Counted from the stretch's first letter, positions 19,945-26,609 are shown. The stretch is 64,000 bases of DNA from Armatimonadota bacterium (GCA_037443365.1 JBBIOM010000001.1:122304-186303); one strand, 5' to 3'. A program made the numbers and translations. The notes: generated from the sequence alone by a model not told the origin.

Positions 19945-20907
19945 GTGGCTGAGACGGCGGCAACGCAGACAACGGTTCTCTCGTACGGATTGGGACCCAT
20001 AGGAGCCGGCATCGCGGGACTGGCGCTCGACCGCGGGTACCGGATTGTCTCGGCGGTCGACATATCGCCCGACAAGGCCGGGAGCGACCTGGGCGTCCTG
20101 CTGGGACGCGCGAGACTTGGGGTGACGGTGACCGCTGATGTCGCCGCGGCCCTTGCCTGCAAGCCCAGGGTCGTCCTGCACTCAACCCAATCGCACATCC
20201 CGCAGGTCATGCCCCAGCTCATGGCGTGCATCGAGGCAGGCGCCTGCGTCGTCTCCACATGCGAAGAGCTGGCGTTCCCGTGGTACCGTCACGACCACGA
20301 GGCCAGGCGCCTCGACGCGGCCGCGAAGGCCCACGGCGTCACGATCGTGGGCGTGGGCGTGAACCCCGGATTCGTGATGGACCTGCTGCCCATCGTGCTA
20401 ACGGCGCCCTGCCGCAAGGTGCGCGCCATCCGCGTCACGCGCGTGGTGGATGCGGGGTTGCGCCGCAAGCCCCTCCAGCAGAAGGTGGGCGACGGCCTCG
20501 ACCGGGCCACCTTTGAGAAGGGTGTCGCGGAAGGCCGAATGGGGCACGTGGGGCTGCCCGAGTCCGTGGCGATGATCGCCGATGCCCTGGGATGGCCGCT
20601 CGACTCAATCGAGGAGACGATCGAGCCGGTCATGGAGGGAGCCACGGTGCGCGGCCTGCACCAGGTGGCGAACGGCCTGCAGAGCAAGGAACCGGTCATC
20701 TCGCTGGACCTGACCATGGCCGTGGGCGCGGCGAATCCGCGGGACTCGGTGACAATCGAAGGCGAGCCGCCCATCGCCCTGACCGTGTCCGGAGGCATTC
20801 ACGGCGACGTCGCAACGTGCGCGATATCGGTGAACGCTATCCCGATGGTGCTGGCGTCGCCCCCAGGCCTGACCGCGCCCCACCGCCTACCTGCGATCCA
20901 TCGCTGA
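19945..20907 (+). CDS. DapB-like / 2,4-diaminopentanoate dehydrogenase-like NAD(P)-dependent amine dehydrogenase
   Basis: YGLGPIG, VSTCEEL, GVNPGFVMD, GGIHGDVAT. Confidence 0.75.
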   Translation: MAETAATQTTVLSYGLGPIGAGIAGLALDRGYRIVSAVDISPDKAGSDLGVLLGRARLGVTVTADVAAALACKPRVVLHSTQSHIPQVMPQLMACIEAGACVVSTCEELAFPWYRHDHEARRLDAAAKAHGVTIVGVGVNPGFVMDLLPIVLTAPCRKVRAIRVTRVVDAGLRRKPLQQKVGDGLDRATFEKGVAEGRMGHVGLPESVAMIADALGWPLDSIEETIEPVMEGATVRGLHQVANGLQSKEPVISLDLTMAVGAANPRDSVTIEGEPPIALTVSGGIHGDVATCAISVNAIPMVLASPPGLTAPHRLPAIHR

Positions 20908-21786
20908 TCGGGCGGCGGCTCGCAGAGCGCGTGCGCCCAGGTTGATGAGGTAGGCACCATCGGTCCCGGGCACCGGTAGGAGGTTCCAGGCAACGCGCAG
21001 GAGCGCCGCGGCGGCAAGCAGCGCCGCGGCCTCTCTTTGCGCCGGCAGAGCCAGCCCGGCAATGAGGGCTACTGAACCCACCGCGGCATCGCAGAGCGGC
21101 CCCCAGGCAGCGATCCTTGCCCGCGCGCGAGGGGGCAGGAGCGCGGCGCCGGCGAGGTGCACGCGGAATCCGATGCTCCAGGGGGCGGCCTCCACCACGA
21201 GCGCGGCCGCGCGGGCGCCCGCGGTCAGCGCCGCAGCGGCGTGGGCCATCTCGTGGGTAAGCCCAAGGATCCAGACCAGGAACGCCAGCGCCAGCAGGCG
21301 CGACACCTCTGGCTCCGAGTAGAGAGCGCGAAGCCAGCCAGCGTGCTGTGCGCCCAAGACCGCGCCCGCAACCAGCAGCGCGGCAACCCCGAAAGCCCGC
21401 ACCCATGCCGGAATCCTGTGCAGCAACCGGCAGAGCGGCAGCATAGCGGCCGCGTTGGCGATGACCACTCGTGACGAGAAGGGCCTGAGCACTTGCGGCG
21501 CCTCGGCGCCGCAGGACACCAGACCAGCATCGACCAGACGTCTCACGAACCGCGCCACGTCCGCCGCGTCCAGTCGCGGCGCCGCCCCGGCCACATCGCG
21601 CGACAGCTCTTCGAGCCCGCGCGTACCGTCCATCAGGGCCAGCAAGGACGCCTCGGGCTCGCCCGCCTGGAAGCAGCGCCCCCCGGAGGCGTGGACGATC
21701 CAGCGCGCACCCCCCTGCCCCCCGACTTCCCTGGTGACGCGCACGCCCGGGAGCAGGCACGGTCGCGCCTGGCTCAGGTCGTCCAC
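20887..21786 (-). CDS. RRE/PqqD-like domain fused to an M50 membrane metallopeptidase
   Basis: N-terminal LLALMDGTRGLEEL...VARFVRRLVDAGLV winged-helix pattern; HEMAH, AWGP, NLLPVPGTDG; GTG at 21786. Confidence 0.75.
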   Translation of the reverse strand: MDDLSQARPCLLPGVRVTREVGGQGGARWIVHASGGRCFQAGEPEASLLALMDGTRGLEELSRDVAGAAPRLDAADVARFVRRLVDAGLVSCGAEAPQVLRPFSSRVVIANAAAMLPLCRLLHRIPAWVRAFGVAALLVAGAVLGAQHAGWLRALYSEPEVSRLLALAFLVWILGLTHEMAHAAAALTAGARAAALVVEAAPWSIGFRVHLAGAALLPPRARARIAAWGPLCDAAVGSVALIAGLALPAQREAAALLAAAALLRVAWNLLPVPGTDGAYLINLGARALRAAARSAMDRR

Positions 21787-22499
21787 CTGAACCGCCGCAC
21801 GGATACAACTGCTCCGATCAGTCCCCACAGCGCCAGCACCCCCAACTCGGTGACGACCGAGGACGCGTCCCCACCGCGGGCGGCCGCCCTGAGCCCGCGC
21901 AAGAAGTATGTCAGCGGAAGCGCGCCGGAGAGGCGCGCCAGCGCGGCGGGCAGCATCTCTACCGGGAAGTAGGCGCCACTCAGGAACGTCATGGGGAAGA
22001 ACAGGAAGGCGGCGATCGAGTTCGCGGCCTCGACCGAGCGCGCCAGGACGCCCACCGCGAACCCGGTAGCCAGGAAGGCTGGTACGCCTACGCACATGAC
22101 CGCCGCGAGCGTACCCGGCCGAGCAGAGAACCGGACGTCGAAGAGCCCCGCTCCTATGGCCAGCAGCTCCACGCCCACGGCGAGCACAACCGCCCCGCGC
22201 ACCAGCATCTGAGCCAGTACGAGCTGCCAGGCCGGGATCGGGACGAGGACCAGGCGCTTGAGGAACCCGCTGCTGCGGTAGTGGGTCACGACCACACCGA
22301 TGCTGTAGTAGGCCGTGGATGCCAGCACCATCCCGAGCACGCCCGGGACAAGAAAGACCATCTGCCCGGGTTCGCGCGCGAACACGCTGCCCAGCAGCAC
22401 CAGCAGGAAGGCCGGAAAGAAGAAGGTCCAGAAGGCGGCCTGCGGCGTGCGCCAGAACAGCCTGGCCTCCATCAGGACGAGGCGCCACAAGCCCGTCAT
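21774..22499 (-). CDS. ABC-2 exporter permease
   Basis: Six hydrophobic segments, FLSGAYFP, LPLTY; ATG at 22499. Confidence 0.88.
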   Translation of the reverse strand: MTGLWRLVLMEARLFWRTPQAAFWTFFFPAFLLVLLGSVFAREPGQMVFLVPGVLGMVLASTAYYSIGVVVTHYRSSGFLKRLVLVPIPAWQLVLAQMLVRGAVVLAVGVELLAIGAGLFDVRFSARPGTLAAVMCVGVPAFLATGFAVGVLARSVEAANSIAAFLFFPMTFLSGAYFPVEMLPAALARLSGALPLTYFLRGLRAAARGGDASSVVTELGVLALWGLIGAVVSVRRFRWTT

Positions 22500-23233
22500 G
22501 TCGGTCCTCCTGGGAGCGGGGAATCCTGGGTCAGTTCCAGGAAGGTTTCTTCGAGCCCGCCGCGGCCAGCACGCGCCAGCGCTGCCACGGTGCCCTGCGC
22601 GAGTACCCTGCCGCGGTGGATGATGGCCACCCTGTCGCACAGCGACTCGGCCTCGTCCAGGTGATGCGTGGCCAGAAGCACGGTGCGCCCGCATGCCCGC
22701 GCCTCGTGAATGAGATCCCAGAGATCCCGGCGCGCGTGCGCATCGAGCCCTGCCGTGGGCTCGTCCAGGATCAGGAGCTCGGGATCTCCGACCAGGGCCA
22801 GCGCCAGCAGGAACCGTCGCCGCTGCCCGCCTGAGAGCTGGCCGTACATGGCCGCCGAACGGTCGCCCAGACCTGTCCGGGCGAGCAGCCGGTGCGCCTC
22901 GATACGGCGCGGGTAGAAACCCCCGAGGAACTCCAGCGCCTCCCCCAGGCGCAGGTAAGGGTGGAAGACCGCCTCCTGCAGCTGCACGCCTATGCGCCGC
23001 CGCAGGCCCAGCGCCCCGCCCCGAGGATCGAGCCCCAGCACACGCGCCCGGCCCGCATCAGGGCGCTGCAGCCCCACCAGTATCTCGATGGTCGTGGTCT
23101 TGCCGGCGCCGTTGCGCCCCAGGAGCCCGAATACCTCGCCTTCCTTGACCTCCAGGTCAAGCCCGTCCAGAGCCACGACGCTGCCGTACCGCCTGCGCAG
23201 GCCTTCCACCTCGATTGCCAGCGCGTCAGGCAT
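22496..23233 (-). CDS. ABC-2 exporter ATP-binding protein
   Basis: GRNGAGKTT, LSGGQRRR, LDEPTAGLD; ATG at 23233. Confidence 0.92.
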   Translation of the reverse strand: MPDALAIEVEGLRRRYGSVVALDGLDLEVKEGEVFGLLGRNGAGKTTTIEILVGLQRPDAGRARVLGLDPRGGALGLRRRIGVQLQEAVFHPYLRLGEALEFLGGFYPRRIEAHRLLARTGLGDRSAAMYGQLSGGQRRRFLLALALVGDPELLILDEPTAGLDAHARRDLWDLIHEARACGRTVLLATHHLDEAESLCDRVAIIHRGRVLAQGTVAALARAGRGGLEETFLELTQDSPLPGGPT

Positions 23234-26407: not shown

Positions 26408-26430
26408 GCGCGTACCGTGACATCGGCCCT

Positions 26431-26469
26431 GGGGGCGGCCGCCGGCAGCGATGGCACCCCGCCGCCCCC
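26431..26469 (-). promoter_or_regulatory. GC-rich hairpin just after the precursor stop (stabiliser or leaky terminator)
   Basis: GGGGGCGGC...GCCGCCCCC 9-bp inverted repeat with 21-nt loop; no U tract. Confidence 0.5.
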
Positions 26470-26483
26470 GTGGGCTGGGCGAC

Positions 26484-26609
26484 CTACATGTTCTCGCCGC
26501 CGCCACCACCGCCGCCGCTGCAGCAGCAGCAACAACAACACGCGATGATGATGTCACCGCCGCGGTCGAACAGGGTCATGCTCTCGAGCTCGACAATCTG
26601 CAGTTCCAC
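26484..26609 (-). CDS. RiPP (LAP/TOMM) precursor peptide, 41 aa: MELQIVELESMTLFDRGGDIIIACCCCCCCSGGGGGGGENM
   Basis: Manually translated; GGAGGTGA RBS 6 nt before GTG; Cys7 run; first gene of the YcaO cluster. Confidence 0.9.
   Translation of the reverse strand: MELQIVELESMTLFDRGGDIIIACCCCCCCSGGGGGGGENM

Follow-up and report, generated by a model that had tools for sequence, protein, structure and literature searches.

A seven-gene unit predicted to make a linear azole-containing peptide from a poly-cysteine precursor in a bacterium labelled Armatimonadota

Seven co-oriented genes at positions 20887-26609, on the minus strand, of a 64,000-nucleotide stretch of DNA from an Armatimonadota bacterium (GCA_037443365.1, JBBIOM010000001.1:122304-186303; the whole stretch is called the window here) probably encode a pathway for a linear azole-containing peptide (LAP), a peptide made by the ribosome and modified after translation (RiPP). 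The original prediction, made by a model from the sequence alone, was of a complete unit made up of a precursor, a C protein, a YcaO, a SagB, two ABC proteins and an M50 protease with a RiPP recognition element (RRE). The listing of open reading frames (ORFs) and a reading of the sequence both confirm this unit, in the order A-C-D-B-ATPase-permease-protease. We observed the genes, their order, their intact motifs, their folds, their conservation and their co-occurrence directly, and the azole-peptide pathway is, in our judgement, their best and a likely explanation. The cluster is an uncharacterised example of a well-known RiPP class; its poly-Cys core is very simple, and its protease module, though of interest, has a precedent.

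The three modifying enzymes, C, D and B, score above their NCBIfam cut-offs, in agreement with the predicted E1-like C protein, YcaO with a terminal PHPFP and SagB. The YcaO (D) matches TIGR03604, the SagD-type cyclodehydratase of thiazole/oxazole-modified microcins (TOMMs), at 262.2 bits (cut-off 219.25) and Pfam YcaO at 218.7 bits, and its closest solved structure is LynD (E 7.3e-20). Its C-terminus, P440-H-P-F-P444, is invariant in 21 of 21 aligned YcaOs; PxPxP is given as the canonical motif of azoline-forming YcaOs in the available part of bioRxiv 10.1101/2025.07.11.664356. The C protein matches TIGR03882 (TOMM leader-binding protein) at 64.4 bits (cut-off 36.9), and its residues 41-233 align to residues 34-218 of TruD (E 4.9e-8); the protein aligns to the N-terminal domains of TruD and LynD. 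The B protein reaches 109.9 bits against TIGR03605 (SagB dehydrogenase family; cut-off 78.4), with McbC and BmdC as its closest solved structures. It is 70-74% identical among four sister genomes, 53% identical in G001 (locus L014) and 57% identical in G020, a genome of another genus. The two ABC proteins form a DrrA/DrrB-like pump, in which the ATPase scores 94.3 bits against ABC_tran and 211.5 bits against TIGR01188 (under the cut-off of 312.45) and the permease 88.2 bits against ABC2_membrane. With known LAP/TOMM clusters the unit shares a C protein of the E1-like/RRE kind encoded separately, a YcaO that ends in PxPxP, a B protein of the SagB type, a neighbouring precursor made up of leader and core, and an ABC exporter.

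The precursor encoded by gene A, MELQIVELESMTLFDRGGDIIIA-CCCCCCC-S-GGGGGGG-ENM, is 41 residues long, and the seven contiguous Cys of its core could, as had been foreseen, give up to seven thiazol(in)es. We compared nine precursors, namely those of the window, of seven loci (six sister genomes and one genome of another genus) and of the protein entry P0227; one of the nine (L014) has nine masked residues. The leader is common to all nine, and the Cys run is 7 long in eight of them and 8 long in the ninth. Positions M1, L3, I5, E7-L8-E9, L13-F14-D15 and G18, the seven Cys and two Gly are invariant in the seven precursors that were aligned. Ala precedes the Cys run in the window and Gly does so in three of the nine precursors; the residue after the run is S, N, Y or I, and the Gly run, of 2 to 9 residues, is followed by an acidic residue. 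With the leader and the Cys run recurring in eight further sequences, the 41-residue ORF is not a chance one. Over leader codons 1-18, each of five orthologues differs from the window by 5-6 synonymous and 1-2 non-synonymous codons, a pattern that indicates a translated gene under purifying selection, and the Cys codons of the orthologues alternate between TGT and TGC.

Upstream of the precursor start, GGAGGTGA precedes the ATG in four of the seven orthologues listed, a truncated GAGGTGA stands further upstream in two, and one has a GGGGGGAG-type purine run only. A precursor search of a protein collection returned P0227 only, which carries little weight since small ORFs are seldom called there. 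We found no second precursor in the genome, where the only other six-fold TGY run, on contig C15, falls in a poly-Leu segment inside an RseP-like gene. In a protein atlas the best score for the precursor was 0.80 (lead level 0.9), and a 'thiazolylpeptide-type bacteriocin' cluster at 0.76 is a hint only. The precursors end in Met in eight of nine cases (ENM, DMM, DMCM, DIM, EGDM) and in Phe in the ninth (EGDF); 2-3 positions ahead of the end there is always an acidic residue, and we have no explanation for this tail. In the precursor at L014:838-960 (genome G001), nine codons are read as X where the bases are N.

The seventh protein is, according to a high-confidence model, an RRE fused to a site-2-protease fold, in line with the predicted RRE-M50 protease. 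Its HExxH and NLLPxPxTDG motifs are invariant among six orthologues; in 54 of 54 family members H178, E179 and H182 are invariant, and N268, P271, D276 and G277 are at least 90% conserved. The AlphaFold model, built from the 54-sequence alignment, has a predicted local distance difference test score (pLDDT) of 91.8 and places a helical membrane domain after residues 16-86. The N-terminal part is modelled as strands at 16-21, 27-32 and 38-41 followed by helices at 43-50, 58-66 and 74-86 (pLDDT about 75-96). The top Foldseek ranks for the model are RRE domains and site-2 proteases, at weak E values of 0.02-0.2. In the VIA comparison, which was exhaustive, residues 1-95 matched the lasso peptide B1 protein 6jx3_B (Z 9.7, 81 aligned residues, root-mean-square deviation 2.5), TbiB1 (5v1u_A, Z 9.6), PqqD (5sxy, Z 9.4) and the PbtF RRE (8t19_A, Z 8.6). 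Residues of about 103-291 matched SpoIVFB (8vjl_A, Z 10.6, 134 aligned residues, root-mean-square deviation 4.3), RseP orthologues (Z 10.3 for 7w6z_A, and 9.2) and the Methanocaldococcus protease mjS2P (3b4r_B, Z 9.0).

The best curated match of the protease is NF041824, the daptide intramembrane metalloprotease (63.9 bits, E 1.4e-17, cut-off 300), and against Pfam PqqD it scores 12.9 bits (E 0.14, cut-off 23.4). A profile search of 1.84 billion representatives returned 626 relatives at E <= 0.001, of which 39 reach E <= 1e-10 and 6 reach E <= 1e-30. Of these relatives, ten were scanned; all ten match NF041824 below its cut-off, three pass Pfam PqqD and three carry HlyD-type adaptor domains. 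The protease is a member of a large RiPP-linked family and not a new type. Only five distant matches came from a metagenome scan with the protease alignment; over the HExxH region their identity is 26-38%, and none was informative. The predicted complex of the protease RRE (residues 1-100) with the precursor scored 0.25, under the mark of 0.32, and hence gives no verdict.

The unit is conserved within the genus. The source assembly of the window has 2.2 Mb in 69 contigs and is 97.7% complete. A YcaO match is present in 10 of the 41 relatives searched, including all seven sister genomes of the genus (two of the loci are cut by contig ends). In the wider scope, named 'phylum', of 94 genomes that all belong to one order, 14 have a YcaO match at E <= 1e-20; nine of these are orthologues at 58-77% identity (G000-G007 and G020) and identity in the remaining five is 31-35%. 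Eight of the 94 genomes match the protease profile, all of them within the nine that have the orthologous YcaO. The ninth, G005 (92% complete), has no protease match; its contig ends inside the YcaO gene and the downstream genes are not on the contig. Within the genus, as far as the contigs extend, the synteny AdoHcyase-comF-A-C-D-B-ABC-ABC-protease-dehydrogenase-aminotransferase is conserved. The seven genes recur in G020, where a FadB-like gene and an Lhr helicase gene flank them, and this copy at a different site fixes the borders of the unit at exactly these seven genes. The nearest public contigs, seemingly from the same genomes as some of the relatives, were counted once.

Two side observations concern the genomes themselves. 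In the G001 assembly, the protease gene is on contig C56, apart from the remaining cluster. The 'phylum' scope comprised one order only, though the relatives are publicly titled Armatimonadota; the lineage may be a small separate phylum in genome taxonomy, for which CSP1-3/Sysuimicrobiota is a candidate.

We suspect that the pathway works as follows. The 41-residue precursor would be made from its own strong ribosome-binding site, and the winged-helix RRE of C would bind the conserved leader (E7-L8-E9 and L13-F14-D15) and present the core to D. With ATP, D would activate the amide before each Cys, whereupon the thiol could cyclise to give up to seven contiguous thiazolines, which B, an enzyme dependent on flavin mononucleotide, would oxidise fully or partly to thiazoles. 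At the membrane, the RRE-fused site-2 metalloprotease would bind the same leader through its own RRE and remove it, and the DrrAB-like ABC-2 pump may export the product, protect the producer, or both. The product should be linear. The cyanobactin enzymes LynD, TruD and MusD are the closest solved structures for both C and D, but in cyanobactins C and D are fused, whereas in the window they are separate genes and there is no PatA/PatG protease or macrocyclase. As for the role of the peptide, our best guess, and the default for LAPs, is an antagonistic (antibacterial or membrane-active) one.

Several points weigh against this reading. We infer every chemical step, the cleavage site, the export and the biological role, and any bioactivity is speculative. 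Confidence in the model of C is low (pLDDT 60.1); residues 16-82 form a unit of three strands and three helices in it. By sequence, the protease scores 17.0 and 16.8 bits against Pfam PF02163 and PF13398 (M50 and M50B), under their cut-offs of 27.2 and 26; with these scores and that against NF041824 so far below the cut-offs, neither substrate nor cut site is transferable from the daptides. Besides the pump, no immunity gene was seen, nor was a regulator. The B protein has Arg before a conserved Tyr where McbC has Lys (R-Y against K-Y). Finally, strain-variable bacteriocins are not typically fixed throughout a genus at a housekeeping site, and such fixation fits a physiological role at least as well.

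The last of these points leads to an alternative with the same biosynthesis, in which the product would serve the physiology of the producer as a signal or as a binder of copper or another thiophilic metal. We consider it unlikely overall, even though all seven sister genomes have the cluster, fixed at a single housekeeping locus free of mobility genes, the precursors strictly keep their Cys count (7 in eight of nine) and the acidic residue near their C-terminus but vary in linker and Gly run, and the sequencing runs that hold the window DNA are labelled subsurface metagenome. Against it, the unit has an exporter-type ABC-2 pair as its sole transporter and no receptor, uptake system, metal-responsive regulator or sensing gene; moreover, the cluster is sporadic in the other genus, where one of six genomes has it. 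Toxin-type LAP clusters can also be conserved species-wide. A combined proposal that joins this role to the maturation steps is, to our minds, improbable. It would have a linear peptide of seven thiazoles kept genus-wide in the deep subsurface for a physiological purpose such as handling a thiophilic metal, with its leader read by both RREs and cut at a fixed distance after ELE, by a maturation module that is portable across RiPP classes. To our knowledge, a linear scaffold of seven contiguous thiazoles has not been structurally described.

The Arg in B raises the possibility that the product is mainly a poly-thiazoline, or a mixture of thiazolines and free thiols, with a dehydrogenase that is impaired or has another role. 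The Lys-Tyr pair that McbC has is required for dehydrogenase activity. At the residue before Tyr, six other orthologous loci in which the pattern was found have R (3), K (2) or V (1, in G020), as against K in 58 and R in 3 of the pattern matches in more distant loci. We nevertheless find this outcome doubtful, for B scores above the SagB family cut-off, its identity levels among relatives indicate that it is under selection, and the Tyr and the RGYR...E.G motif are kept in six of the seven loci where the pattern was sought; Arg may also stand in for Lys. The substitution does mean that oxidation may be weaker or different, and that ring formation is more certain than the oxidation state the rings reach.

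The assignment of the protease to leader removal draws on the daptides. RRE-fused intramembrane site-2 proteases are described as daptide leader peptidases in the available text of bioRxiv 10.1101/2023.03.08.531785, where the RRE-dependent MpaP removes the leader, daptide leaders carry ELExMEAP and, according to a legend, models for YcaO and azoline dehydrogenase co-occur in some daptide clusters. Cleavage is placed after ELExxxxx irrespective of the P1 and P1' residues in the sections available of bioRxiv 10.1101/2025.07.11.664356. The window protein shares with MpaP/DapP an N-terminal RRE and an HExxH membrane domain, and its cognate leader shares ELE, which is invariant in precursors of the window type. 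However, the protease is homologous to DapP/MpaP without being their equivalog, and the unit differs from daptide clusters in other ways. Its seven genes lack methyltransferase, class-III aminotransferase and alcohol-dehydrogenase domains (DapB, DapC, DapD and DapM are absent), none of the precursors has a C-terminal Thr (Met in eight of nine, Phe in one), and the modifying enzymes are the azole-forming C, D and B. Since ELE is absent from the leaders of two clusters with other proteases (L024 and G009, described below), its invariance here fits recognition by the protease RRE, which this comparison of two lineages would tentatively suggest. By analogy, a daptide-like ruler would place the cut after F14.

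Instead of removing the leader, the M50-like protein might trim the C-terminal tail as a follower peptidase or carboxypeptidase, like TglG/TmoG of the pearlins, or act in immunity or regulation, with a housekeeping protease taking off the leader. There is precedent for the latter in microcin B17, which uses TldD/E encoded outside its cluster according to the part of a review that was available, and the terminal Met in eight of nine precursors, with the acidic residue two to three positions before the end in every case, speaks for the alternative too. We regard this as quite improbable because the N-terminal RRE fold and the daptide leader peptidase as the best curated match both point to leader recognition, as does the ELE motif of daptide leaders; furthermore, one precursor ends in Phe and the unit contains no PEARL or MNIO enzyme.

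That the unit belongs to the streptolysin S-like cytolysins is highly improbable. With the streptolysin S (sag) cluster the unit shares a core that opens with contiguous Cys and continues in a tail free of Cys, Ser and Thr, Gly before the run in three of nine precursors, and C, D and B enzymes next to an ABC-2 type exporter; the permease has a weak SagH match. A CAAX-type (SagE-like) protease is a feature of streptolysin S-like clusters. In the window, however, none of the seven proteins gave an Rce1-like (CAAX) match at E <= 0.01, C scores 32.7 bits against the SagC model TIGR03603 (cut-off 187.65), the permease 25.4 bits against SagH (cut-off 450), and the YcaO has no close named relative. 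The cytolysin core is a Gly followed by 10 or more heterocyclisable residues in the available text of PMC4603692; here it has 7 Cys and at most one Ser, preceded by Ala in the window. Core length, SagC score and the lack of a CAAX protease thus argue against membership, and the likeness to streptolysin S is only the loose one that had been claimed.

Unlike known LAPs, the predicted peptide has a pure run of seven Cys, then a Gly run and an acidic/Met tail, and the unit has no methyltransferase. Contiguous azoles as such are known, in plantazolicin. The in-cluster protease, being an RRE-fused site-2 enzyme, is neither TldD/E nor CAAX; in the part of PMC10885120 available, the enzymes given are TldD/E (M103) in the case of LAPs and M50 members in that of epipeptides and pearlins. 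The original prediction of a different maturation machinery stands with respect to streptolysin S, but the machinery is precedented by the RRE-fused site-2 leader peptidases of the daptides, in a family of 626 representatives.

A LAP cluster of Lysinibacillus xylanilyticus (L024) has a leader, MQIIELNEGMRLFD..., that resembles that of the window, MELQIVELESMTLFD... It also shares a Cys-rich core (CCCCYFC) and the order C-D-B followed by an ABC-2 pump, and differs in a YcaO that is 28% identical, an M16 peptidase in place of the RRE-fused site-2 protease and a mixed core. No characterisation of this cluster was found. It lies at L024:5471-12134 in a cultured Firmicute, with the core CCCCYFCTSTG and the M16 peptidase between B and the ABC-2 pump, and might serve as a tractable cultured relative for work on leader recognition. 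Related clusters thus use other proteases, M16 in L024 and CAAX in G009, from which we take the protease to be a swappable module; the window clade has recruited the RRE-fused site-2 type. A relative of the protease was found only in orthologous loci, namely L018 and L020 among the 80 loci compared, and L011-L013 and L015 in addition; L025 gave one RRE-only partial match to the protease, inside its C protein.

No characterised close relative was found in the libraries searched, and no named protein that was found reaches 40% identity to the enzymes. The best YcaO matches at loci outside the clade are 28-38% identical, and named proteins are 26-33% identical. Among the 80 loci, a C-D-B core followed by an ABC ATPase is common, and many of the distant loci have poly-Cys precursors upstream, such as CCCCCCCHC in L025, CCCCCC in L028, CCCCCCC and CCCCCC in L035, and CCCCCCC in L079. 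The claim that the cluster is uncharacterised therefore holds as far as these libraries go, but poly-Cys LAP precursors are frequent in distant C-D-B clusters. The literature covered, which did not extend to supplementary cluster lists, contained no report of this family, of a LAP cluster with an RRE-M50 protease, or of any RiPP from the lineage. The main text of PMC4603692 has no mention of Armatimonadetes, metalloprotease, M50, polycysteine or CCCC in the part available, and the available text of PMC7470986 has none of protease, M50, HlyD or zinc; the supplements of both might list relatives, and a published mention of the cluster in some cluster list cannot be excluded. Polythiazoles are mentioned for products of non-ribosomal peptide synthetases only, in the part of PMC9867215 available.

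If expressed, the unit would be a very simple test case for exhaustive cyclisation, with a short core, seven identical sites and no tailoring enzymes. It is because of this chemistry, the cyclisation of contiguous Cys, that products of the streptolysin S type have remained difficult to characterise. Expression would also bring an RRE-guided intramembrane site-2 protease into an azole-peptide pathway and make the 'ruler' rule of the daptides testable on a second class. A natural-product pathway is added to a poorly known uncultured lineage labelled Armatimonadota, and existing knowledge of how LAPs are made is unchanged.

The genes and features of the unit are collected in Table 1. Neighbouring genes overlap (C/D by 19 nt, B/ATPase by 8 nt, ATPase/permease by 4 nt and permease/protease by 13 nt) or nearly abut (D/B, with a gap of 11 nt), the sole exception being the 128-nt spacer from A to C. 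For B, the ATPase, the permease and the protease, the longest ORF begins too far upstream, its surplus stretch falling within a neighbouring gene in another frame; each start chosen instead has a ribosome-binding site and matches the point from which relatives align. In the case of B, the longest ORF runs from 24104, relatives align from residue 15 only, and an ATG with a GGAGGG-like site is found at 24053.

Table 1. Genes and sequence features of the seven-gene unit (positions in the window)
Feature	Position	Strand	Remarks
Precursor gene A	26484-26609	-	41 aa + stop; GTG start
Shine-Dalgarno GGAGGTG	26617-26623	-	7 nt upstream of precursor start codon
Leader, residues 1-23	26541-26609	-	precursor A
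Cys7 run, residues 24-30	26520-26540	-	precursor A
Tail S-G7-E-N-M, residues 31-41	26487-26519	-	precursor A
C protein, N-terminal winged-helix RRE + E1/ThiF-like domain	25381-26355	-	TIGR03882; predicted leader-binding partner of YcaO
D protein, putative azoline-forming YcaO cyclodehydratase, C-terminal PHPFP	24065-25399	-	TIGR03604, Pfam YcaO
B protein, SagB-type FMN dehydrogenase	23226-24053	-	TIGR03605; alternative start 24104
ABC transporter ATPase, DrrA-like	22496-23233	-	ABC_tran
ABC-2 type permease, DrrB-like	21774-22499	-	ABC2_membrane
RRE-fused intramembrane site-2 (M50-like) metalloprotease, 299 aa	20887-21786	-	motifs, model, fold matches
RRE, residues ~9-90	21517-21762	-	protease
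HExxH, residues 178-182	21241-21255	-	protease
NLLPxPxTDG, residues 268-277	20956-20985	-	protease

The surroundings are housekeeping genes, in agreement with the original placement of the unit between comF and a convergent dehydrogenase with no mobility genes. A ComF-like gene lies 80 nt upstream of the unit, and on the other side a 2,4-diaminopentanoate-dehydrogenase-like gene is convergent, its 3' end overlapping the protease gene by 21 nt. This overlap of the two 3' ends, at 20887-20907, leaves no space for a terminator between them. Further flanking genes encode adenosylhomocysteinase, a GYD protein, enoyl-CoA hydratase, the primary sigma factor, an aminotransferase and a sugar-isomerase-like protein; the class I/II aminotransferase, at 18609-19820, is outside the unit and is not found beside the G020 copy. 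A domain scan of the seven genes and 12 flanking ORFs detected no LanB, TfuA, methyltransferase, CAAX or mobility domain, which agrees with what had been said of the first four, and the flanks have no tailoring gene either. A promoter scan gave 0 sites, and the 4 terminator-like sites, against a shuffle average of 2.5, are not meaningful. The A-to-C spacer folds no better than shuffled sequences (z 0.10), and we make no claim of an attenuator. No RNA runs containing this DNA are listed; the four DNA runs come from one subsurface study, and one of them may be the source.

Other loci gathered in the comparison contain LAP clusters of their own. In G009, which belongs to the same family but to another genus, a 516-residue ORF at L016:2706-4256 (minus strand) has a CAAX (Rce1-like) domain at 91-179 and then an ABC ATPase at 243-378; it represents either a fused gene or two genes that share a frame. 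The YcaO of this LAP cluster is 35% identical to that of the window, and its precursor ends in ...CSESCCCCCCGCSCSEAGGGRDDELPT. Metagenome-assembled genomes of Actinomycetota have two or three tandem Cys-rich precursor genes at L032:5001-5565, L046:2039-2355, L074:5646-6003, L091:5744-6020 and L035:3-259. A leader ...ELL[DE]L[TR]A... is common to L035, L046, L074 and L091, and the three copies of L032 differ from it (...IEDLE.../...IEELE...). The cores of these tandem precursors vary, as in CCSCCCCCGWCC and CGCSCSCSCTSCTC, and the Actinomycetota loci look like a large uncharacterised LAP family.

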